IMG/VR virus record: IMGVR_UViG_3300010043_000012
Location: 1-27,417 of that record
Direction: 5' to 3' (one strand)
From: a virus
Lineage: Duplodnaviria; Caudoviricetes
Length of the DNA stretch: 27,417 nt
The notes beneath the pieces were generated by a model. The model searched no databases. It was not told the origin of the DNA and saw nothing but the letters and a program-made list of their open reading frames with translations. This document shows positions 2,107 to 20,920 of the stretch, piece after piece. The translations under genes and the position numbers were made by a program. Each line of letters starts with the position of its first letter. The first letter of the stretch is position 1.

Positions 2107-4377
2107 TCATTTATGAGGGATAAGACTAACAACAGTCATCTTGCCAATTTTATGAACGATAGCAACCTCATTTTTTTCTAATTCCTTTAAACAATTAGAA
2201 AAATCTGAAGAGGTTTTCCCACAATAATTTTTCATTTTATCCCAAAGTTTCCGTCTTTGAATTGTAAATGGCGGCAGCCCTTTTTCATTATAAGATGATA
2301 GAATTAATTCTATTTTTTTAAAAATTTCATAATATCCTATATTATCAGACATATTGTTTTTTATTTCATTAAAAAATATATCAGATGATTGTTTGGATAA
2401 TTCAAATGCCCATCTTATATTTTCCTTACTGACAGATGGAGAAATAAAATTTTCGCAACAGGCCAAAATAGTTGCTATTTTTATTGTATTAAATGAAGTT
2501 CTAGCATAAATTTCTCCGATATCTTTATCTGAATCTATAAGAGAACAGCATTCTTTTTCTATAGAATAATATTCTAATTCAGATTCCTTGTCTTTCCAGG
2601 GAACTATATATATATCTGGTTTAGGAGATGTATTCTTATCGTGACTTCCGGACATATTACCATTTTTTGGAGCCCCTATCATGTATAAATTATACAAATC
2701 TCTTAATAATCCATCAGGTGGATTCTTAACAGATATCCTTTTATCCGGAGAAGAAAAGGTTCTCTCATCTCCCCCATCTATTAACATGAATCTATTAATA
2801 ATACCATTAGATATGTCCTTGCTTTTAATAGAATTAAATAACTGAGCGCTTGTTGTCATACAATATAAAGAAAGATGCGGAGCATAAACAGAGGTCGATG
2901 GCCTGGATCTTACGCCTCCTATTCTATAAATATTAAAATTATTTCCATATAATTTCCTTAGATGAGTTGATATTTGATTAATATAAGAAGGAGAATTCTT
3001 TGCTGTCATGTCACTTAATATTTGTCCAAATTCATCCTGAATTGATAAGGATAGAGGTTTATTTTGAATTAAATCTTCAATATATGCACCTGATTTAAAT
3101 TCACTATCAGCCATATGTTTTTCTAATTTAAGTTTATCTATAATAGAATTAATCGCTCGCTCTTGATGAGATTTCCCTCCACCTGTCGGATACGTTGCAA
3201 TAATATAAAGTTCAAGAGATCCTTCTGTTGGGGTACTTACACAGCGTCCTAACAACATAGATATTAGAGAAAGAGCTGCAGAAAGCGCTAACCATCTATT
3301 CCCTGTCGGCCCACTATCACAAATCCAATTTGTAAGATTTCCTAAGATTCCAGCCGGATATGATAAACTATCATCTAATTTATTTCTTTTTAAATTTATT
3401 TTTTCTATTGGCTTTTTGCAAGATACCTTTAAATCTATAATAATATTATCATTTTCTTCAAAATCTTCTTTCTGGAAAGAATCTGGATTTTTAGCAGGAT
3501 TAGACGTCCCGATTTTCCACCCACTTTTTATAGTTGCCTCGCATGCATATTTCCCATCTTCTTTTAATAATCCATTATGAGCACAGGCATCTAACAAGGC
3601 TTGCCGACAAATTGACTCAGTTATCCATCCTCTGGCTGAGAGACTGGCTAATCTTATAGCAGACTTATTTAATAAGTTGTTTCTACCTCCTTTCATACAA
3701 ATTTTAAGATCTTTAATTATATTATTTAAAGCAACTTGAGAATATTTTTCCATATTAGTATTAGTTGTTGACTTTTTAACTTGAATATTTTCTTGAAATT
3801 TATGAGAATGATCTTCTATTTTTATTATGCTTGATATTTCTGATAAGAATAAATCAATTTTTTCTTCAGATACAGATATTAGTTTATCTATTGGGACGCG
3901 GATTAGATCTATATTATTGAGCCATTCATAAAGCATTCCTTCTGGATGCACCCCATATCCTATAAAACTACGGCCATGACCTAAAATTTCTACAGCGCAT
4001 CCTGTATATTCATTATTGCCCAAAACTTGCTTTCTAGCTGGAGATCCTTCTAAAGCTTTATATAATATAAGATTTTTCCCAGTCCCAGATCGGGTCCGTA
4101 TAGGCCCTTTCCCTAAAAGTTCAAAAGCAATATTTCGGATATGAAGAGCAAGATCCATATCTTGAATATCAATATCGACTGCACGTAATCCATCACATAA
4201 AATTGCAGTTGACATACAATAAGGATATACAGGGCTTACAGCTGCCTCAGGCGGATTAGCGCGAGCGCGCTCAGTCCATTTTAATCCAACTGGTTTTTTT
4301 TGTTTTGTATAAACGGCAATAGGTCTATACCCATTTTTCCATAGAGATTCTCGCAATGTTTTTATATCATCTAACAT
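2107..4377 (-). CDS. Bifunctional Prim-Pol primase fused to a DUF3987-type P-loop helicase
   Basis: N-terminal AEP/Prim-Pol motifs (AVDIDIQD, VEILGHGRSFIGYGVHP), a helical GGRNNLLN..A..L domain, Walker A PTGGGKS and Walker B IQDEFG. ATG 4377 is preferred to TTG 4389. Confidence 0.85.
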   Translation of the reverse strand: MLDDIKTLRESLWKNGYRPIAVYTKQKKPVGLKWTERARANPPEAAVSPVYPYCMSTAILCDGLRAVDIDIQDMDLALHIRNIAFELLGKGPIRTRSGTGKNLILYKALEGSPARKQVLGNNEYTGCAVEILGHGRSFIGYGVHPEGMLYEWLNNIDLIRVPIDKLISVSEEKIDLFLSEISSIIKIEDHSHKFQENIQVKKSTTNTNMEKYSQVALNNIIKDLKICMKGGRNNLLNKSAIRLASLSARGWITESICRQALLDACAHNGLLKEDGKYACEATIKSGWKIGTSNPAKNPDSFQKEDFEENDNIIIDLKVSCKKPIEKINLKRNKLDDSLSYPAGILGNLTNWICDSGPTGNRWLALSAALSLISMLLGRCVSTPTEGSLELYIIATYPTGGGKSHQERAINSIIDKLKLEKHMADSEFKSGAYIEDLIQNKPLSLSIQDEFGQILSDMTAKNSPSYINQISTHLRKLYGNNFNIYRIGGVRSRPSTSVYAPHLSLYCMTTSAQLFNSIKSKDISNGIINRFMLIDGGDERTFSSPDKRISVKNPPDGLLRDLYNLYMIGAPKNGNMSGSHDKNTSPKPDIYIVPWKDKESELEYYSIEKECCSLIDSDKDIGEIYARTSFNTIKIATILACCENFISPSVSKENIRWAFELSKQSSDIFFNEIKNNMSDNIGYYEIFKKIELILSSYNEKGLPPFTIQRRKLWDKMKNYCGKTSSDFSNCLKELEKNEVAIVHKIGKMTVVSLIPHK

Positions 4378-4392
4378 TATAATTCTCAACGG

Positions 4393-4809
4393 TCAAATAT
4401 TCCATAACTTTAATTGATTCGAATATTCTAAAAATATATCTTTTATTATATCTGATAATATTTCATCTTTTCTTATTGACTCACATAAATCATCAAATGA
4501 AATATTATCTAATTGTCTTATATCAAAAATATTTTTAGAATATATTGATTCTAAAAATAATGTAATAAATGATCTTATGTTTTTAGATATAGCTATCCTT
4601 ATAGATATATCTTCTATTTCATTTAATTTCATTTTATTCATTGAATATACTCTATCCCATGTTTTAATCTCAAAACATTCTTCACATATCCACATTATAT
4701 CTGACAATTTTGAAAATTTTTTAGTTGTGATGCCATAATTATGGGCCATACATCCACAACATCCACATGCTGATGGTTTCCCAGATCTTTTTCCAAAAAT
4801 TACAGTCAT
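4393..4809 (-). CDS. Zn-finger protein between helicase and primase (possibly DUF6511-like)
   Basis: CGCC...CEEC motif. ATG 4809 overlaps the helicase TGA (ATGA) and follows GGGGAAAG. The family assignment is from memory and tentative. Confidence 0.65.
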   Translation of the reverse strand: MTVIFGKRSGKPSACGCCGCMAHNYGITTKKFSKLSDIMWICEECFEIKTWDRVYSMNKMKLNEIEDISIRIAISKNIRSFITLFLESIYSKNIFDIRQLDNISFDDLCESIRKDEILSDIIKDIFLEYSNQLKLWNI

Positions 4810-6485
4810 TCTTTCCCCATATAAGAAATCTTTAATGATTCTGGAAGACAAAAAGTATTTCCAGAACGTGAAAATTTTCTATTTGTAACTCTCTTAAAGC
4901 CATTTTCGAATTTTATTTTTATTTTAATATTTTTTAAATAGACTTCCTTCCAGTATTCAATGCATTTTTTTATAATATTTAATTCAGAATTTGAATATAA
5001 AATTTTTTGCCCAGTCATACCCTCCCACCATAAAATAGCCCTTTCTTTAGCATATCCTGTATTTTCAAAAAGAAGATATTCATTATATATGCTCAATCCG
5101 CATATATATGATATTTTTATACATTTATTCCCTGCCTTTGATGTATGCTCTTTTATATATATTTTATCTACATCTATCCATTTTTCCTCTATTTCTTGCT
5201 TTAATACTCCCATCTCTATATCTGCATATTTAGATATAATAGATGATTCCCTCTCAAATAGATGATTACATTCTGGGCAAGTCTTTGCATATTTATTTAT
5301 TAAATAATTACATTCTGGACATTCTTTAGAATTAACATCATCTTCTTTAGCTCTTTTATTTTTAAAATCAATATTTCTTGATTTATTTTCAATAGCATCT
5401 ACAGGGCCATGTCGTCTTATATTCCCAGAATAATCAAGAACAAGCGTAAAATTTTTTTCATCATGAGGTCTTGTTCCTCTTCCTAGCATTTGTACATATA
5501 ACCCAGCAGAAAGAGTCGGGCGCATCATAGATATAGAATCTATAATGGGGGCATCAAACCCAGTCGTTAAAATGTTAGCGTTTGTCAAGTATTTGAATTT
5601 ATTGCTTTTAAATTCATTTATAATTCTATCTCTTTGTAACTGATGTACCTTCCCAGTGATGCATTCTGCGCTTTCTCCAAGAGACAAAAGATAATCTTTA
5701 ACTTGATGAGCATGCTGTACCCCCGAACAAAAAACAAGACAGGATCTTCTTTTTGAAATTCGTTTTACCATATCTTCACATGAAGCATTCAATATATTGG
5801 GATCTAACGCCCTCCCTTCAACTGAAGATAGAATAAAATCTCCATTAGATTTCCCGATCCCCCTCACATCAATTTCTATTTTTCCTGCCATAGATTTTAT
5901 TGGGCAAAGGAATCCATCTCTTATTCCTTCAGTTATTCCGTAAGAATATATAAGATCATCAAATGGGCAATCTTTTCCATAAAGTAACCCCCCCTCTAAT
6001 CTATATGGAGTTGCCGTGAATCCTGCAATTTTAAGATCATCATTATAAGACTTGAATCTTTTAAATAATGATCTATATCTTCCATCTCCTATGTGGGGGA
6101 TTAGATGAGCTTCATCAATTAAAAATACATCTCTTTTCCCTATTGTATGGATGTCTTCATTTGCAATAGATTGGATAGATGCAAAAAGAATCTGATTTCG
6201 TTTATTTCTTAGTCCTAAGGAAGCAGAATTGACGCCTAAAGGGGCAGATGGCCAAATTTTTAACATTGTGCTTGAATTTTGAGCAACCAGCTCTTTGACA
6301 TGTGTTAAAATTAAAATTTTTATATCATATTTTTCAACAAGATGCTTAACCAGCATTGCAAGAACAATAGACTTTCCTGTTCCTGTCGCCATTTCAACAA
6401 GAGGGTTCCCCCCGCCCCTTTCCCAATAAGACAGTATAGACTGGACTGCTTTTTCCTGATAAGGGCGGAGGGTTATCATATGCAT
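4806..6485 (-). CDS. Superfamily 2 DEAH helicase (RadD/YejH-like) with C-terminal Zn ribbon
   Basis: LRPYQ Q-motif, ATGTGKS, DEAH, TATP, TGFDAP, QMLGRGTR and CPEC...CPEC. Confidence 0.93.
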   Translation of the reverse strand: MHMITLRPYQEKAVQSILSYWERGGGNPLVEMATGTGKSIVLAMLVKHLVEKYDIKILILTHVKELVAQNSSTMLKIWPSAPLGVNSASLGLRNKRNQILFASIQSIANEDIHTIGKRDVFLIDEAHLIPHIGDGRYRSLFKRFKSYNDDLKIAGFTATPYRLEGGLLYGKDCPFDDLIYSYGITEGIRDGFLCPIKSMAGKIEIDVRGIGKSNGDFILSSVEGRALDPNILNASCEDMVKRISKRRSCLVFCSGVQHAHQVKDYLLSLGESAECITGKVHQLQRDRIINEFKSNKFKYLTNANILTTGFDAPIIDSISMMRPTLSAGLYVQMLGRGTRPHDEKNFTLVLDYSGNIRRHGPVDAIENKSRNIDFKNKRAKEDDVNSKECPECNYLINKYAKTCPECNHLFERESSIISKYADIEMGVLKQEIEEKWIDVDKIYIKEHTSKAGNKCIKISYICGLSIYNEYLLFENTGYAKERAILWWEGMTGQKILYSNSELNIIKKCIEYWKEVYLKNIKIKIKFENGFKRVTNRKFSRSGNTFCLPESLKISYMGKE

Positions 6486-6910
6486 TATTCTTTTATCAAG
6501 GAAAGCCCTAATTTTTTAGCTTTGACTATTTTTGAAATAGGGCAATCAATAGATGTCCAAAAACTAGTCTCTTTTATTGAAACACCTGATTTAATGAGAG
6601 ACAAAATTTGAGCCATAGACATAATAAAAAATTTTCTCCATTCTTTATACTCTTCTAATGTTACGCCCTGTATTTTTGCATCAATCATATTCCTTACAGA
6701 TAATCCTAATTCCTTCCATTCAGGAAAGCTTTCAATTCCAATATTTTTTTTCTTGGCAAGGACCATGTCTTTTACAGATGCATTTTCCTCTTGCCAAGGC
6801 AAGAAGTCATTAGGAGTTAACCTTAAATCATGGGCCTTTAAAACCCATTTTTCATCGAAGAGCCACATATTCGGTATTACTTTTGACCATTCTTTAATAA
6901 TATCAGACAT
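6485..6910 (-). CDS. Hypothetical phage protein
   Basis: 141-aa ORF translationally coupled by TAATG overlaps at both ends. Confidence 0.75.
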   Translation of the reverse strand: MSDIIKEWSKVIPNMWLFDEKWVLKAHDLRLTPNDFLPWQEENASVKDMVLAKKKNIGIESFPEWKELGLSVRNMIDAKIQGVTLEEYKEWRKFFIMSMAQILSLIKSGVSIKETSFWTSIDCPISKIVKAKKLGLSLIKE

Positions 6911-7224
6911 TATGCTGCCTCCATTACTTTAATTTCAGGAAGAGAACTTTTTATACGTACAACCATGCTTGTAGAAATTATTTCAAAATCTTTGCAAGAA
7001 TCACTCCCTAAAAATTCCTTTATTTTTTTCATATCGAGCCGAATAGAAATTTGTTCCGAAATAGTTAAAGAGTATTTTCCTCCTTTTATTGAAACAATAT
7101 CTCTTTGTATTAATTCATTTTTTATATTTTTCATTCTTTCCTCTATTGCTTTTGCTTGCAGAGAAAGATGCCCATATTCATCCGCTAATCGCTCTGATGA
7201 AATATTATGGAAATTTTTAGTCAT
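6910..7224 (-). CDS. Hypothetical phage early protein (coiled coil plus small beta domain)
   Basis: ATG 7224 is preceded by AGAAGAGG. The listed upstream extension to 7317 runs through the promoter. Sequence pattern LADEYG...AKAIEERMKNIKNEL...RLDMKKIK. Confidence 0.75.
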   Translation of the reverse strand: MTKNFHNISSERLADEYGHLSLQAKAIEERMKNIKNELIQRDIVSIKGGKYSLTISEQISIRLDMKKIKEFLGSDSCKDFEIISTSMVVRIKSSLPEIKVMEAA

Positions 7225-7282
7225 GACAAGAACCTCTTCTATGTTCTGACATTTAAAAAATTTAAATGCTTCAATGGGCGGA

Positions 7283-7310
7283 GGATTACAAATTAGGCAT
7301 GAAAAGTCAA
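7283..7310 (-). promoter_or_regulatory. Putative leftward sigma70 promoter (TTGACT-N16-TAATCC) overlapping the 18-bp repeat
   Basis: The minus strand reads TTGACTtttcATGCCTAATTTGTAATCC, about 55 nt upstream of the first gene of the replication operon. Confidence 0.55.
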
Positions 7311-7448
7311 TAGACATAATTAATCATTTTTTATTAACCTTAATTAAAATCAATCTTATTGCTTGATTTTATTGATTTTTTTCAATACATTTTTTTTATT
7401 GAAACATGGTAAATTTTTTTTGTTGACAATGGATTACAAATTAGGCAT
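7283..7448 (+). repeat. Exact 18-bp direct repeat GGATTACAAATTAGGCAT (7283-7300 and 7431-7448), putative operators
   Basis: Read directly. Each copy lies just downstream of a -35 box of one of the two divergent promoters. Confidence 0.85.
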
Positions 7449-7451
7449 ACA
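7423..7451 (+). promoter_or_regulatory. Putative rightward sigma70 promoter (TTGACA-N17-CATACA)
   Basis: Perfect -35 at 7423-7428. The predicted start site falls at or near the ATG at 7458. Confidence 0.6.
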
Positions 7452-7457
7452 TGATTC

Positions 7458-7691
7458 ATGAAATTAAGCATATGGATGATAGAAAACGATATGGATGATA
7501 AAGCATTCGCAAAACGAATGGGGGTATCTATTTATGGAGTTCAAAAATGGAGATTAGGAGTCAGCGTACCAAGAGCTACTCAACTTTTGAAAATATTAGA
7601 AATCACAGCTGGAGAAGTTACGCCTAATGATTTTTTTTGGAAATATATTTCAAAAGTAGGAAGAAATGATGAAAAATACTCTAATGATTGA
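7458..7691 (+). CDS. Cro-like helix-turn-helix regulator
   Basis: MKLSIWM...FAKRMGVSIYGVQKWRLGVSVPR...ITAGEVTPNDF matches the Cro/YdaS-type pattern. First gene of the rightward operon. Confidence 0.85.
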   Translation: MKLSIWMIENDMDDKAFAKRMGVSIYGVQKWRLGVSVPRATQLLKILEITAGEVTPNDFFWKYISKVGRNDEKYSND

Positions 7692-7857
7692 TGCTATCAT
7701 TTTTTCCGGCATAGACATACAAGATGAGAGTAAGTGCATAATATATTTAATATCTATAGGATTTTTATGTAAGGAAATTATTAAAGATTTTGATAATTCT
7801 ATTATTTCAATAAAGAAGATGAGAAACTTTTTAAATGTGACGAAAGGTGATGTATAA
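7666..7857 (+). CDS. Small hypothetical protein
   Basis: 63-aa ORF filling the gap between the Cro-like and RusA genes, with AGGAAG upstream. Confidence 0.55.
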   Translation: MMKNTLMIDAIIFSGIDIQDESKCIIYLISIGFLCKEIIKDFDNSIISIKKMRNFLNVTKGDV

Positions 7858-7858
7858 G

Positions 7859-8368
7859 ATGATATATGTTAATTTACCTCTTCCTCCTTCTGTTAATAAT
7901 CTATGGCGATCCATATCAAGGAAATATGGGAAGATATCAGTTATAAAATCATCAAAATATAAAGAATGGTTACATTATGCAGGATCAGAATTAAATTCTC
8001 AAAAGCCTACCCCTGTTTGTGGAGAGTATTGTTTAGAAATCTTCCTTCCCGAAAATATGAAGGGAGATATCGATAATAGAATAAAAGCCATAAATGATCT
8101 TCTCGCTCAACATGGACTTATTGAGAATGACAGATTTAATAAAAGGCTTGTGGTAGATTTTGATAAAAATATATCAACAAGTAGATGTAAAATATATGTT
8201 TTTTCAAAAAACAGTGATGAGATTGATAAAATGGAAAGAGTAGAGCGATCTTTAGAAAGAGATACGAATGCCAGCCTTATAAAACTTACTAAAAACAGGC
8301 CTAAGCTTCATAAGATTGCTATAAATTCAGAAGAAAATAAAAGTGATGTAATATTAAATATTGATTGA
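7859..8368 (+). CDS. rusA: RusA-family Holliday junction resolvase
   Basis: LPLPPSVNNLW and GDIDNRIKAINDLL..HGLIEND motifs. ATG 7859 follows AAAGGTGA. Confidence 0.85.
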   Translation: MIYVNLPLPPSVNNLWRSISRKYGKISVIKSSKYKEWLHYAGSELNSQKPTPVCGEYCLEIFLPENMKGDIDNRIKAINDLLAQHGLIENDRFNKRLVVDFDKNISTSRCKIYVFSKNSDEIDKMERVERSLERDTNASLIKLTKNRPKLHKIAINSEENKSDVILNID

Positions 8369-8391
8369 ATTAAATATGCAATTATGTAGTT

Positions 8392-8477
8392 TGGTTGGGG
8401 CCTATTTATTAATCTTGGTCTGGAGTACGAGATAAAATAAACGAAAAGCCGTTTCTCTTCTAGCGGCGCCCCAATCA
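8392..8477 (+). ncRNA. Candidate three-way-junction structured RNA
   Basis: Closing stem TGGTTGGGGC (8392-8401) / GCCCCAATCA (8468-8477). Arm TTTATT-aATCTTG...CGAGAT-aa-AATAAA. Hairpin GCCGT (8448-8452) / GCGGC (8463-8467). GC-rich stems in an AT-rich intergenic gap. Confidence 0.55.
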
Positions 8478-8491
8478 TATATAAAAAGGAA

Positions 8492-9328
8492 ATGATAAGT
8501 ATGTGGGATAGATTAACAAATATATCAGCTAATGAATCACCGAAAATTATTATTTACGGACCACCTGGAATTGGAAAAACAACACTCGCTAGTGAGTTCC
8601 CTTCTCCTGTTTTTATTCAAATTGAAGACGGGATTCCATCTGGGATGTCTATATCATCCTTTGGTTTATTAGAAACATATGAAGAGGTTATCGAAGCTAT
8701 GAGGTCCTTATGTAAAGAGGATCATCAATTCCAGACTCTTATTATTGATAGTTTAGATAAAATGGAAGCATTATTGGCTGAAAGTATTAGTAGAAAAAAT
8801 GGATGGCAAAATATATCAACTCCTAAATATGGAGCGGGATATATTGCTTGTGATATAGAATGGAAAAAATTTTTAAATGCATTAGATGTTTTGAAATCAA
8901 GGAAAAATATGACAATTGTTGCTATATGTCATAGTTCTATAGAAAGGTTTGATGATCCGTCAATTGAATCATATAGTCAATATGATTTGAATTTGCATAA
9001 AAGATCAAAGCCTATTATTTGTGCTGAATTTGATGCAATTTTATTCCTAAAACAAGATGTTCAATTAAAAGAAGACCAGGCAGGTTTTTCAAAAAGATCT
9101 ATTGCGGAAGGATTAAACCGCATAATTTTCTGTGAAGGGAGACCATCTTTTATTGCAAAAAATAGATATAATATGCCATATAAAATCAAATATAATAAAG
9201 GAAAAGGATACGAAGAATTATCTAAGTATTTTCCGAAAAAGAAAATATTTGAAAATAAACCGATAAATAACAGTAAGGATAATGAAGATGATGAAGAAGA
9301 AAATGGGGATGAAGGTATTGTTTTATAA
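8492..9328 (+). CDS. AAA_24 / Sak4-like phage ATPase (recombination)
   Basis: YGPPGIGKTT Walker A, TLIIDSLD, YGAGY and AKNRYNMP, followed by an acidic tail. Adjacent to an SSB-like gene and a nuclease. Confidence 0.88.
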   Translation: MISMWDRLTNISANESPKIIIYGPPGIGKTTLASEFPSPVFIQIEDGIPSGMSISSFGLLETYEEVIEAMRSLCKEDHQFQTLIIDSLDKMEALLAESISRKNGWQNISTPKYGAGYIACDIEWKKFLNALDVLKSRKNMTIVAICHSSIERFDDPSIESYSQYDLNLHKRSKPIICAEFDAILFLKQDVQLKEDQAGFSKRSIAEGLNRIIFCEGRPSFIAKNRYNMPYKIKYNKGKGYEELSKYFPKKKIFENKPINNSKDNEDDEEENGDEGIVL

Positions 9329-9373
9329 TTCTTATTTAAAATTATTTTTATTTAATATTCTTAGGAGATTAAA

Positions 9374-9883
9374 ATGACTGAATTTAAAACAGAATTAATC
9401 ATTAATGAATTACCTGAAGATGATGAATTTGAACCTATTCCTGCTGGGAAATATGTTGCTGAAATTATAAATTCAGATGTTGTATCAAATAAAAATGAAG
9501 ATGGGATAATTTTAAAATTAACAATAAAAATTGTAGAAGGGGATTTCTCTGGGAGGCTTATTTTTGAAAATTTAAATATTGAAAATAAAAATGAGAAAGC
9601 TCAAAAAATTGCTCTTTCAATGCTTAGGAAACTATGCGTTGCTGTTAACTTTGAAGGAACATTAAAGAATAGTGTTGAATTACATGGCGTTCCAATAATT
9701 GTATCTGTGGTAATTAAACCGGAACAAGGTGGATATCCATCAAAAAATTCAATTCGAAAATTTGAAAAATATCAATCTAATATTCAATCTCCAAAGGATA
9801 GCAATTTAAAAAGCAAAGATGCCCCATCATGGCTTAAAAAATCTTCTATTCAAGAAGATATAGGCGATAGTGTGCCATTTTAA
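9374..9883 (+). CDS. DUF669-type single-stranded DNA-binding protein
   Basis: FEPIPAGKY...GRLIFENLNI...AQKIA pattern with an SSB-type acidic C-terminus DIGDSVPF. Strong SD AGGAGA. Confidence 0.85.
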   Translation: MTEFKTELIINELPEDDEFEPIPAGKYVAEIINSDVVSNKNEDGIILKLTIKIVEGDFSGRLIFENLNIENKNEKAQKIALSMLRKLCVAVNFEGTLKNSVELHGVPIIVSVVIKPEQGGYPSKNSIRKFEKYQSNIQSPKDSNLKSKDAPSWLKKSSIQEDIGDSVPF

Positions 9884-9891
9884 AAAAATTT

Positions 9892-9963
9892 CCCCGTATA
9901 GCTTAACAGTAAAGCATACCTTTCATGATGGCGATCATCTTGGTGCAACTCCAAGTGCGGGGA
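9892..9963 (+). tRNA. Atypical tRNA with CAT anticodon (Met or Ile2 type), weak anticodon stem
   Basis: Acceptor CCCCGTA/TGCGGGG, T8A9, D-arm GCTT-AACAGTA-AAGC, anticodon arm TACCT-TTCATGA-TGGCG (only 2 Watson-Crick pairs plus 1 wobble), T-arm CTTGG-TGCAACT-CCAAG, discriminator A followed by TCA. Confidence 0.75.
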
Positions 9964-9968
9964 TCAAT

Positions 9969-10038
9969 GGCCGGTTAACTCAATTGGTAGAGCACCGACG
10001 TAGTCGGTGGGTTTCAGGTTCGAATCCTGAATCGGCCA
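9969..10038 (+). tRNA. tRNA-like gene with a collapsed anticodon loop (GTA triloop)
   Basis: Acceptor GGCCGGT/ATCGGCC, D-arm ACTC-AATTGGTA-GAGC, T-arm TCAGG-TTCGAAT-CCTGA. The anticodon arm is CCGAC-GTA-GTCGG. Confidence 0.8.
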
Positions 10039-10103
10039 TCATCTTTATAAATTTTCAAATTAAAATTTTTTAAATAGAAACATCTAATTATTCTGGAATT
10101 GAT

Positions 10104-11045
10104 ATGTCAAATATATGTAAGAAAATAAAAAATGATATTGAGAATATGTATGAAAGATCTCAAAAAGATGAGGATTATTACCCAACTCTTAGAGCATCTC
10201 AAATTGGAGATGAGTGCTCTCGAAAACTTTGGTATAGATTAAGATGGGCATTAAAACCAAAAAAATGGTCAGGAAGGATGATTAGGCTTTTTGAAACAGG
10301 AAAGAAAGAAGAAGATAGGATTATTCAAAATCTAAAAGACGCAGGATTTGATGTCTTATTTCAACAGAAAGAAATATTGCCCTTATCGAATGGCTCCTTA
10401 ACAGGATCGATTGATGGTCAAATTCCTTTAACAATTCGTGAAGGTGAACAAGAATTCTATCTTATAGAAATAAAAACTCATAATGATATTAATTGGAAAA
10501 GCTGGAATCGCTACGGAGTAGAAATATCTCATCCTAAACATTTTGGTCAAATATGCACTTACCTCACTGGATTAGATTTAAAAAAATGTATATATATATC
10601 CCTTAATAAAAATACAGATGAGATAGGGTTAGAAGAAATAAATAAAGATGACGAAAAATGCAAAAAAATATTAAAAAAGGCGTCAGATATAGTATACTCA
10701 GAAGATATACCATTAAGAATATTAGATAAAAAAAATCTCTGGATGTGTAAACTTTGCGAATTCAATAATATATGCTATGAAGAAGATTTACCAAGAAAAA
10801 ATTGTAGAACTTGTATAAATTTTGAATTTGATTCATCCGGAACATTTGGAAAACATAAATGTAATAAGTTTTCGACTGACCTATCATTAGATCAACAAAA
10901 ACAAGGATGCAGTTCTCATATTTACAATCCGAAAATGATAAATGCAAAACAGATAAATTTCAATAAAAAAGAGGAGAGTGTAACATATAAATTAAAAAAT
11001 GGAAAAACCTTTAAAAATTGTATAAAAGGTGATATATACGAATAA
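10104..11045 (+). CDS. PD-(D/E)XK exonuclease, Cas4/YqaJ-like, with Cys clusters
   Basis: ASQIGDECSRKLWY, GSIDG, EIKT, HFGQICTY, CKLCEFNNIC and NCRTC. Confidence 0.85.
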   Translation: MSNICKKIKNDIENMYERSQKDEDYYPTLRASQIGDECSRKLWYRLRWALKPKKWSGRMIRLFETGKKEEDRIIQNLKDAGFDVLFQQKEILPLSNGSLTGSIDGQIPLTIREGEQEFYLIEIKTHNDINWKSWNRYGVEISHPKHFGQICTYLTGLDLKKCIYISLNKNTDEIGLEEINKDDEKCKKILKKASDIVYSEDIPLRILDKKNLWMCKLCEFNNICYEEDLPRKNCRTCINFEFDSSGTFGKHKCNKFSTDLSLDQQKQGCSSHIYNPKMINAKQINFNKKEESVTYKLKNGKTFKNCIKGDIYE

Positions 11046-18197: not shown

Positions 18198-20920
18198 TAA
18201 TCTCTTCCTAATTCAGGCGCCATAGATAAATCTACTGGAATAATACGTTTTGGAGTTAGATTTGTGAGATTAGGAGCAATCTTCTCAAAAATATCTCTTG
18301 AAGTAATACCAGACGGCTTAAAAAAAGTATCAAAATTTTTTATATTCTCTGGGGTTGGATGAGAGAATAAATCAGAAATAGCTGCTCCCCATTTTTGATA
18401 AGACCAAGGTTGCCCATGAACAGTCGGTCTGAAATAAACAGCAGATTGCCATGCCTTCGGATCTATCCCAGGAGGAGGAACTGGAATTATATCATTAGGT
18501 GATATAGATTTATTTTGAGCCAAAGGATTTTGAAGATTTTTATTCAAAGGAAGTTGGAAATTTTGGGCCAAAGAAGTTGGGAGATTTTGAGAAGGAACGG
18601 GGGCGTTAATTGCTGAATTTTGAAGCGTAGATATCGGGGGCGCCGTATTATAATATTTTTCAATATTTTTTTGATCAAAAAATTTATATGGATTCTTCTT
18701 TCCTTCTTCTGTATTTCTAAATGACCTGAATTCTGATTCAAATCTATTTACAATTTCAGAATCATAAAACGATCTCCCTTCAGGACTTTCTAATCTTCTT
18801 CTAGGATTTCCATTATAAACTATTTCTGTTTCAATAGATTTCAACGCAGCAAGTTTTATCTTTTGGAGCTGCTTCTCTTCAGGTGAATCTTGAATTTTAG
18901 AAAGAGCTTGAGATAAATTAATAACATCCCTGGATGTTAATCTCCCATCTATCTCAAGACGATATAAATCAGCATTCGAATCAATTGTTCCGTTTGTTAT
19001 TTTTTCCAAAGTATCATTATACAAAGGACTTGAAACTGTTCCTATAGATTTCCCTAAATCCTTAGTGGCAATTTGTGTCAACTCATTCTTTCTTTTCCAG
19101 TCTATATCATTACTATTTTGAATTTCTTGAAGAATATTAGCATTTTGGGATGGATCATGCATTTTTGTATATAAATCATTTGAAGCCTTATCTTCAACTT
19201 GTTTTTTTAATGAATTTGTTGATGCTTCTAGCATTTTTTCATCATTTGATTTTTGTATAATTTTATTTCTAGCATGATCAGCCTGATCTTCTGTTATGAC
19301 TCCATTTCTTACATCCTCATCTATTGATTGAAGAGCATGAGCACGCACAAAATCAACAGTAGGCATCGTATTCAATTTCTCTTGAGTTAACATTGAAGAC
19401 GAAATTTGAGGAGTCCCCTGAACTTGTTCTTGACCTAAAGTAGGTATCGATGAAGATTGGATTGTCCCGATATTTTCAGATTGATTAGATAATTCTGTTG
19501 AATGCTGATTATCTGGAATATTTTTAGTGAATTGAACAATCGGACCACCATATGGATGATCAATTCCGCCATGCCCATTAAATTTTTCAATCCAATAATT
19601 TGCAAACTGAGCACATGTCCAACTTTTTGCTTGTGATCTTAATTTTTCTGGCACATTATTTAATATATGACTCATTCCAACCACATCCCCCGCATTTTCA
19701 TTTGGGTTCATAAGTAAATCAGCTGCCCCTCCAGCACCCTGTTGATGAGCAAGATATATTTCTGCATCAGTAGGATACCTTCCCAAAACCCTGGATAAGG
19801 ATTGAGCATTCGCTTTAGCAAGATTAGCCGTAGCATAAATACTATCTTCTGGATTTAATCTTGATCCGCCTATAGGACCGTATTTTTTAAATTCTCTTTC
19901 TCCTACTTGGCCCAATCCAATATATCCCCCACCTGAAGATACAGCATTTGGAATCCCATTACTTTCAAGTTGAATTGTCCGAGCCAAGGCAACCGATGAG
20001 CTATAACCACCTTGTATTTGATTTAAAACAGTAGAAAAAATTGGATTATTTGGATTTGAATATGGCATAGAATTCCGAGCTTTTCCCATTGTTTCTTCAG
20101 CTTTTTGATCTCCAATCATTTTGTCTGATCTAGACTTCACCTCCATAGCAAGAGGCTCATACATCTGACCTAAAATATCTTTATTTGCCTCAACTATTTG
20201 CATAGCGTAAGCCGGATTATTAACATAAATTGCTTGAACTCTTGCCCTTGTCGCATCTCTAAGAGCACGACTCGTTGCATCTTGCATATCAGCAGCACTT
20301 CCTCCTTCTAATCTAACTTTGGTTATATATGCATTGCTTAAATCTGCAACAGAATGATTAAAATGTTCCATATCATATGGATTTCTTGATATCGAATTTA
20401 AAGCCAAATCTGATGACGATTGATTTGTACTGCGATACCAATCATTAGCTTGTTGATTAGTGTGAGATCCAATTTGTTGAGAATGATAATTTTGAAGCCG
20501 ACGGGTTGCAGCTTCAAATTCATGCTGCTGTTCCGGGGTAGAAAGACTATTTTTCCCATCTTGTATAATCTGCTCAAGCTCTCCTTCAGCTTGGGGACGC
20601 CCATCCATAGCGTCTCGTCCATTTTTACCTAAGAACCCTGTATCAACCTGGACGGACCCATCAGGACCAATGATCGTTTTACCCGGATCTCCATAAAGTA
20701 AATTTGTCATTTTTCTTGAAGCATCATTATAAGCTTCATCAACGACAGCTTTGTTATAAAATTCTTTTGCCCTTTCAGCCCCTTGTCCTAACTCCTTAAG
20801 CCCAGCTCCGATAGCTCCTCCAAATTGAGATGAATTTACATCAATGCGTTGCAAATCCTGAGGTGTATTTACTTCAGGATTAACTTGAGGAACGCCTTCG
20901 GTATATGGAACTTGCGCCAT
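18197..20920 (-). CDS. Internal virion / ejection protein (gp15 position) with an embedded lytic transglycosylase domain
   Basis: MAQVP N-terminus and a helical Q/A-rich body. Lysozyme-like motif QLESNG.PNA...YIGLGQ...IYLAHQQGAGGA at about 19577-20068. Confidence 0.85.
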   Translation of the reverse strand: MAQVPYTEGVPQVNPEVNTPQDLQRIDVNSSQFGGAIGAGLKELGQGAERAKEFYNKAVVDEAYNDASRKMTNLLYGDPGKTIIGPDGSVQVDTGFLGKNGRDAMDGRPQAEGELEQIIQDGKNSLSTPEQQHEFEAATRRLQNYHSQQIGSHTNQQANDWYRSTNQSSSDLALNSISRNPYDMEHFNHSVADLSNAYITKVRLEGGSAADMQDATSRALRDATRARVQAIYVNNPAYAMQIVEANKDILGQMYEPLAMEVKSRSDKMIGDQKAEETMGKARNSMPYSNPNNPIFSTVLNQIQGGYSSSVALARTIQLESNGIPNAVSSGGGYIGLGQVGEREFKKYGPIGGSRLNPEDSIYATANLAKANAQSLSRVLGRYPTDAEIYLAHQQGAGGAADLLMNPNENAGDVVGMSHILNNVPEKLRSQAKSWTCAQFANYWIEKFNGHGGIDHPYGGPIVQFTKNIPDNQHSTELSNQSENIGTIQSSSIPTLGQEQVQGTPQISSSMLTQEKLNTMPTVDFVRAHALQSIDEDVRNGVITEDQADHARNKIIQKSNDEKMLEASTNSLKKQVEDKASNDLYTKMHDPSQNANILQEIQNSNDIDWKRKNELTQIATKDLGKSIGTVSSPLYNDTLEKITNGTIDSNADLYRLEIDGRLTSRDVINLSQALSKIQDSPEEKQLQKIKLAALKSIETEIVYNGNPRRRLESPEGRSFYDSEIVNRFESEFRSFRNTEEGKKNPYKFFDQKNIEKYYNTAPPISTLQNSAINAPVPSQNLPTSLAQNFQLPLNKNLQNPLAQNKSISPNDIIPVPPPGIDPKAWQSAVYFRPTVHGQPWSYQKWGAAISDLFSHPTPENIKNFDTFFKPSGITSRDIFEKIAPNLTNLTPKRIIPVDLSMAPELGRD

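Follow-up and report, generated by a model that had tools for sequence, protein, structure and literature searches.

The window analysed here is a stretch of 27,417 nt of a caudoviricete genome, positions 1 to 27,417 of the linear virus record IMGVR_UViG_3300010043_000012 (44% complete), which comes from soil metagenome runs. Two divergent early operons begin at 7224–7458. The rightward operon carries, in this order, a cro-like gene, a 63-aa ORF, RusA, a 132-nt gap with the element discussed below, Sak4, a DUF669 SSB, two tRNAs and a Cas4-like exonuclease, while the leftward operon comprises a 104-aa gene starting at 7224 (hereafter the 7224 gene), a 141-aa gene, an SF2 helicase, a 152-aa gene and a Prim-Pol primase (Table 1). 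The G+C content of the region around the element is ~30%, and the host is presumably an alphaproteobacterium, as the closest genomic relatives of the window's Sak4 are mostly alphaproteobacterial. The Sak4 start at 8501 is the likely one, chosen by SD spacing and alignment. The stops and starts of the leftward genes overlap or abut, which suggests translational coupling. The layout of the predicted leftward promoter is repeated, as a prediction, before the orthologous gene in 8 relatives, and the 18-bp direct repeat that covers both divergent promoters is likely to be the operator of the cro-like protein. Between these promoters the window has no cI-like gene, unlike several prophage relatives. 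The predicted rightward start site (TTGACA with standard spacing, 7423–7460) falls on the cro-like ATG at 7458, which predicts a leaderless mRNA. The two tRNA genes occupy 9892–10040, between ssb and the exonuclease gene; the anticodon arm of the second is very short when aligned to Rfam, yet ARAGORN calls this gene a tRNA-Tyr.

Table 1. Features of the window relevant to the element between rusA and sak4
Feature	Position	Strand	Remarks
Predicted RNA with a three-way junction, made up of closing stem P1, the long AU-rich arm P2, an A-rich junction and guide hairpin P3, which stacks on P1	8392..8477	+	
P3 guide loop UCUCUUCU	8454..8461	+	Unpaired probability 1.0; extends to 8452–8463 on opening of the closing U.G and U-A pairs
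Trans target: RBS of the first leftward gene	7233..7241	-	8 Watson-Crick pairs and one G.U pair with the loop
Target gene, 104 aa	6910..7224	-	Similar to RecE-like/COG5377 phage exonucleases in their C-terminal part
sak4 RBS and likely start (ATG 8501), cis target in relatives	8484..8503	+	4 Watson-Crick pairs (-3.5 kcal/mol) with the window's loop
Possible second trans target: RBS of the gene for an 1820-aa virion protein (window only)	18201..18208	-	7 Watson-Crick pairs, -11.1 kcal/mol
Rightward genes 5' of the element: cro-like repressor, 63-aa ORF, RusA	7458..8368	+	
Recombination genes 3' of the element: Sak4 annealase, DUF669 SSB (9374–9883), two tRNAs, Cas4-like exonuclease (10104–11045)	8501..11045	+	
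Remainder of the leftward operon: 141-aa ORF, SF2 helicase (4806–6485), 152-aa ORF, Prim-Pol primase (2107–4389)	2107..6910	-	
Predicted leftward promoter: TTGACT 7310–7305, start near 7275	7275..7310	-	Predicted solely from the -35 hexamer and a fixed spacing
First copy of the exact 18-bp repeat, overlying the leftward promoter as its likely operator	7283..7300		
Second copy of this repeat, overlying the rightward promoter (TTGACA 7423–7428) as its likely operator	7431..7448		

The product of the 7224 gene belongs to a family assigned to PHROG 434 in all five members compared, and its fold matches are uncharacterised phage proteins; the searches yielded no Pfam family at the cut-off, no convincing PDB sequence match and only unnamed atlas clusters. 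The weak resemblance of the protein to RecE-like exonucleases (C-terminal part) would be in line with a role as recombination partner of Sak4.

The earlier note had described the RNA between rusA and sak4 as a three-way junction, and the fold prediction bears this out: the plus strand of 8392–8477 folds with -32.9 kcal/mol (z-score -3.93, equalled by 0 of 200 shuffles), while the reverse strand folds more weakly (-20.5, z-score -1.66), a strong preference for the plus strand. P1 pairs 8392–8401 with 8468–8477 (10 bp; pair probabilities 0.99–1.0, with 0.54 for the outer pair), the long arm P2 pairs 8405–8417 with 8428–8441, the A-rich junction spans 8442–8447, and P3 pairs 8448–8453 with 8462–8467 and is stacked on P1 without a spacer. 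Of 636 tiles of 86 nt taken across the window, 6 fold equally well when compared with their own shuffles. The letters UUCUCUUCUA given for the loop at 8453–8462 are correct, but U8453 and A8462 are predicted to be paired, and the free loop comprises 8 nt (8454–8461). The likeness to the tRNA acceptor/T-arm geometry is limited to the stacking of P3 on P1; ARAGORN and Rfam give no tRNA here, and the T-loop consensus of tRNAs, a 3' CCA and a match to the tRNA model are absent at the element. The Rfam search that had been proposed gave zero matches to the element in the window and likewise in its relatives. At 8361–8388 there is a weak promoter-like spacing (TTGATT, 16 nt, TATGTA) that would place a start at the 5' end of P1 and is absent from the consensus scan.

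The exact 8-nt complement of the loop, UAGAAGAG, lies as claimed at 7241–7234, i.e. at -17 to -10 of ATG 7224, where it overlaps the SD core GAGG, and a G.U pair supplies a ninth pair. The leader hairpin AGAAC/GUUCU that was thought to present it has pair probabilities of 0.00–0.10 across four leader lengths and is not the favoured fold, in which AGAA pairs with UUCU and only GAGG is looped out. The kissing-loop geometry as originally drawn is thus abandoned, the target not being a hairpin-presented loop. The cost of opening the target site in the window is only 1.7 kcal/mol. The warning that an 8-mer may occur by chance was well founded (4 copies in the window vs 1.07 expected). Among the other called genes of the window, 0 of 19 match the loop as well by Watson-Crick length, and 2 of 19 equal or beat the target by duplex energy. 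Taken alone, the fold and the 8-mer in the window are suggestive only.

Eight related alphaproteobacterial-type (pro)phages carry a three-way junction with a 10-bp closing stem at the same place, before sak4; the eight loci with the window's exact shape and a divergent 7224-type gene are L089, L090, L167, L238, L243, L276, L296 and L346. The window conforms both to the gene order of this family (rusA-element-sak4-ssb-exonuclease, with the divergent 7224-type gene and helicase) and to its shape (P1 of 10 bp, a P2 hairpin, a GC-rich P3 of 4 bp that stacks on P1, and a pyrimidine loop). The P2 loop of most relatives is a UUCG, CUCG or GNRA-type tetraloop. An RNA pattern led to L296 and a protein search to L346, and the leftward leader was used in neither. 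The pattern scan gave 16 matches (5 known elements, 1 new, 10 unrelated), and a covariance model built from five loci recovers L296, L276, L092 and L346, with a single copy in each record within the stretches searched. For the core, the fold of minimum energy is the junction in the window and in 6 of the 7 relatives tested, the exception being L296. The stems covary in the RNAs of nine relatives, with 13 of 19 pairs changed on both sides and 98.2% paired (0 of 500 shuffles), a count taken from a nine-row alignment fitted to the model; on a plain five-row MAFFT alignment the figure is 4 of 19 pairs (1–3 of 500 shuffles). Because of excessive noise, the counts leave out automatic stem picking and the first MAFFT alignments.

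The copy in the window is AT-rich, has a longer P2 and is devoid of the 3' GGACC tail present in 7 of 8 relatives, and the window's Sak4 falls into a clade separate from theirs. In covariance-model searches, the window's model R1 finds no relative, and the relatives' models R2 and R3 do not match the window even at a threshold of E 10 and without filters; homology between the window and the relatives therefore rests on position, shape and target. This raises the alternative that the window's element is unrelated to the family and is a stable intergenic structure (an mRNA stabiliser, a processing site or a minus-strand terminator), and that its pyrimidine loop complements a purine-rich RBS only by coincidence. 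The missing covariance-model link, the four copies of the 8-mer in the window and the sequence of the minus strand, which has a GC hairpin followed by U-rich bases, are in keeping with such a structure. Against it, the position, the stem sizes and the target gene are the same as in the family, only 1 of 265 pooled RBS windows attains 8 nt with the window's loop, and the consensus terminator scan lists no terminator-like site at the element or the target. Moreover, the sole match in the window to a family-shaped descriptor is 8392–8477, compared with one match in 25 shuffled windows; this descriptor, composed after viewing both the window and the relatives, also matches 8 of 9 relative loci tested, with 1–4 further matches per GC-rich locus. 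We regard an unrelated structure as clearly improbable.

Near copies of the phage do not differ at all in the element or the leader, and the only substitution in four soil runs is at 8268, so that there is no covariation within the window's own phage. The proteins closest to the window's Sak4 are P0002–P0004 (60–65%); in cultured phages, a homologue of the 7224-type gene was not found and Sak4 is at most 40% identical. An order-wide genome search gave 1 of 401, the centre itself, and a family-wide search 17 of 401, from which 12 regions were taken, 2 of them with sak4 nearby.

The compensatory changes that the earlier note had proposed to look for were found between related phages: the loop and the leftward RBS covary. 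The loops of the relatives fall into four sequence classes, five including that of the window, namely UUUCUCUUCUAG in the window, CCCGCUCUCC or UCUCGCUCUC in L089, L090 and L167, CCCUCUCUC in L238, UCACCUCUC in L276, and UUUCGUCUC or UCUUCGUCUC in L243, L296 and L346. Scored in the 25 nt ending at the start codon of the 7224-type gene, the cognate loop matches the leftward RBS in 9/9 loci (8, 7, 7, 6, 7, 7, 9, 8 and 8 nt), compared with a mean of 4.77 nt for 60 cross-class pairs, 3 of which reach 7 nt. Permutation of the assignments gave a result as good as the true one in 36 of 362880 cases. With one locus per class, the true assignment was the best of 120 in 6/6 subsets of the first eight loci, 1/120 being the floor of a class-level test on related loci with five loop classes; the independent loop changes number about four or five. 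The loci found later fit the leftward match as well (L296, 12 bp including the stem; L346, 8 nt). The generic anti-SD motif, used as a control, matches 4–6 nt, hence the loop match extends past the SD core. Among the other genes of the same record, as called by a simple gene caller, matches to the loop of the same length occur in 0/38 for L276, 0/52 for L296, and 1/50, 1/20, 2/39, 1/9 and 2/38 for the remaining five.

The same permutation test applied to orthologous RBSs singled out the leftward gene (12 of 40320 as good) and sak4 (8 of 40320). The RBSs of ssb (8224/40320), the exonuclease (1524/5040), the helicase (490/720) and rusA (1848/5040) show no covariation with the loop, those of the primase covary weakly (18/720), and the cro comparison comprised 2 loci only; clear covariation is thus seen in only 2 of 8 orthologous sets. 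Further matches in single phages concern the RBS of ssb, the exonuclease or a probable integrase (L243, L238, L092). The proposal that the loop pairs in trans with the first leftward RBS is supported by the covariation, but its target is no hairpin loop, and there is a second target, in cis, of which the earlier note made no mention: the loop of 8/8 relatives is complementary (6–9 nt) to the RBS of the adjoining downstream gene, sak4, as well. As judged from these comparisons, the covariation speaks for pairing, not for the sign or direction of its effect.

Two other readings of the double match have to be weighed. According to the first, the resemblance between the leftward and sak4 RBS regions has a different cause (a protein-binding site common to both, or one RBS copied repeatedly); the loop would then follow the sak4 copy alone, and the leftward match would be a by-product. 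The two regions do share 9–13 identical nt in L089, L243, L276 and L296, but the shared word varies by phage and always complements the loop, and in the window the leftward and sak4 regions do not resemble each other and the loop follows the former, which makes this explanation very improbable. According to the second, the pairing serves sak4: the loop would be a cis anti-SD switch for sak4-ssb-exonuclease, and the leftward mRNA a decoy that frees the sak4 RBS with little effect on the leftward gene. Consistent with this, the sak4 match is found in every relative, the element always lies directly before sak4, and a looser subfamily has the cis pairing only. In addition, one or two purine tracts downstream of the element match the loop in the relatives, the last being the sak4 RBS, and the unprocessed sak4 leader has a fold of lower energy than the junction alone, mostly via pairing of the loop tract with these tracts; in several relatives the full leader refolds in this way. 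In the window, however, the sak4 match amounts to 4 nt (-3.5 kcal/mol), 13 of 19 genes are as good and an upstream copy is missing; the leftward match of 8–9 nt, in contrast, is kept, so that a decoy would relieve nothing; the full leader of the window is predicted to retain the junction. By its sequence, the window has lost the sak4 match and kept the leftward one. Overall, we consider a device serving sak4 unlikely. A purely cis pseudoknot on sak4 was dropped as a candidate for the window on the same match lengths.

The accessibility of the leftward RBS depends on where the transcript begins. With 50-nt leaders, the RBS of the relatives is buried in a self-hairpin, and net binding is -3.3 to +3.2 kcal/mol in 6 of 7 relatives, with -9.7 for L296 and -7.2 for the window. 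All nine leaders, however, have a TTGAC- or TTGTC-type hexamer spaced to put the start site within the self-hairpin, which would leave the anti-SD strand out of the transcript. Net binding calculated from the predicted start site ranges from -4.7 to -14.6 kcal/mol in 9/9 (window -7.2), although these energies ignore loop topology and the target of the relatives is free only if the predicted start sites hold. The anti-SD pyrimidine run lies between the predicted -10 and +1 in L274, L275, L167, L277, L285, L276, L296, L346, L283 and L278, i.e. 5' of +1, hence the RBS would be hidden only in transcripts that read through from upstream. In the window, CCUCC occupies the corresponding position.

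These results together suggest that the element is a phage antisense RNA acting on the 7224 gene in trans, the predicted pairing of its P3 loop with the RBS being expected to block translation, a reading to which we give a probability of about 0.6. The element lies within the rightward early transcript. P1, P2 and P3 are predicted to form a scaffold, with stems that covary in the relatives, that would keep the loop single-stranded, and the loop reads as an extended, phage-specific anti-Shine-Dalgarno sequence, composed of the SD core and 3–5 further nt that differ by phage. In the relatives, the unprocessed transcript is predicted to refold onto the downstream purine tracts, and release of the junction, probably by processing, would convert the self-folded precursor to a repressor active on both divergent operons. 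In the window, where the cis tracts are lost, the junction is predicted to stay folded in the precursor and the leftward target remains. Pairing there would repress translation of the 7224 gene, with a likely polar effect on helicase and primase given the coupling of the leftward genes. Changes of the loop between phages may confer specificity at the RNA level, like the difference between the C4 RNAs of P1 and P7. We also put forward, tentatively, a broader reading, which we hold possible rather than probable: the one loop may be a re-writable address, with the two lead RBSs of each lineage carrying a private extended SD word, so that one RNA silences both; the RNA would be self-inhibited in its precursor, the leftward leader would self-silence only in read-through transcripts, and loop changes would create RNA-level immunity groups among alphaproteobacterial phages.

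C4 antisense RNA is represented in Rfam by RF01695 (table in PMC2864571), and the C4 RNAs of P1 and P7 are described as having three stems, processing by RNase P, and loops over RBSs whose variation tracks the targets (PMC5320573). The element is similar to C4 in being a short three-stem RNA (~77 nt in C4, 86 nt in the window, a core of ~60 nt in the relatives) embedded in a longer phage transcript, with a hairpin loop that would pair over an RBS and covaries with it between phages, here at the level of sequence. It differs in having one guide loop, while C4 has two (a' and b') with paired target sites; the P2 loop of the window, compared by eye, offers 4–5 bp to the leader. The targets also differ, being recombination and replication genes in two divergent operons as opposed to icd-ant, and the element resides between rusA and sak4 in phages of alphaproteobacterial-type hosts, not before the icd-ant antirepressor genes. 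C4 is matured by RNase P at the GGW start of P1, and the earlier note had cited RNase P processing for both C4 and CI; such processing is unsupported for the window's copy, in which P1 has GGU at 8393 without a 3' ACC, whereas P1 of the relatives starts with GGC or GCG and is followed by GGACC in 7 of 8. The role of the 3' RCCA in RNase P substrates is treated in PMC12710915. Since the C4 model (RF01695) matched neither the window nor the 15 + 9 relative loci, and given the single guide loop and the other gene context, the element was not filed as C4.

The CI RNA of P4 is processed from a primary transcript, pairs with complementary flanking sites in the same transcript and restrains the replication genes (PMC4825925). 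Downstream complementary sites are present in 8/8 relatives, not in the window; CI, however, acts by premature termination at seqA/seqC, whereas the targets here are RBSs, one of them in a divergent transcript, and no terminator is predicted. The pyrimidine loop complementary to RBSs is also reminiscent of alphaproteobacterial sRNAs with anti-SD loops, such as MmgR/suhB (RF00519), and further of cuckoo and AbcR. In those sRNAs the loop motif is a fixed, generic anti-SD, whereas the loop of the present family changes with the two phage RBSs. Rfam identified a suhB/MmgR match above the gathering score in L287 (5505–5577, minus strand), which belongs to the L276 phage, upstream of rusA and ~470 nt from the element. 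The sequence comparisons make it likely that we are dealing with an unrecorded C4/CI-like family of phage antisense RNAs that acts by trans repression.

The literature search revealed no paper on such an RNA, most subscription papers being outside its coverage, and the main-text passages of PMC2864571, PMC5737381 and the review PMC12197685 that it returned mention no such motif. The structure may already be recorded among the candidates of Fremin et al. 2023 (PMC10690425), whose table includes five candidate structures before AAA_24 genes (DNAVirus_1662, 6303, 8244, 8263 and 8752). By their table descriptions, on which the comparison is based, these are phage structures of 64–78 nt located ≤25 bp upstream of Sak4-type genes, as here, but mostly from aquatic sources and in rows without a target. 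Few phage-encoded trans-acting RNAs have known phage targets, C4 and CI being the classic cases. A single loop that covaries with two RBSs in divergent operons would provide an allele-specific test of RNA control of the timing of phage replication and recombination, the family may inform superinfection specificity in alphaproteobacterial phages, and the natural loop-RBS pairs, with five specificities, could serve as a small orthogonal toolkit for translational control.

A closing stem, an inner hairpin and a pyrimidine tract, picked by eye, also precede distant sak4 genes in 11 of 39 non-self loci and in 12 of 42 loci of a second set (2 repeats); in many other loci rusA runs straight into sak4. 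Stop-codon read-through from rusA into sak4 was rejected as an explanation, since the gaps of 109–132 nt are not all in frame. The looser subfamily before sak4 (L007, L008, L009, L091, L096, L169, L173, L211, L219, L226, L236, L239, L240, L262, L269 and L347) is built of a long closing stem, an inner hairpin and a long tract that pairs just before the sak4 SD, as a pseudoknot or an alternative fold. Of its loci with the leftward gene, 3 of 4 (L007, L211 and L347; by eye) show no leftward match, and L008 needs G.U pairs. L215, L220, L223 and L233 have a variant before sak4 with a shorter stem and downstream pairing (by eye). The 7224-type genes without sak4 nearby (L349–L352 and L354–L357) share a different conserved leader with a GC hairpin and no Rfam match. 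The RNA scaffold of L346 resembles those of L276 and L296 while its Sak4 groups with that of L089, a discordance that points to module exchange. Finally, the 3' end of rusA in L089, L090, L167 and L296 forms, immediately 5' of the element, a strong hairpin whose loop is of the CCUCCCU type.
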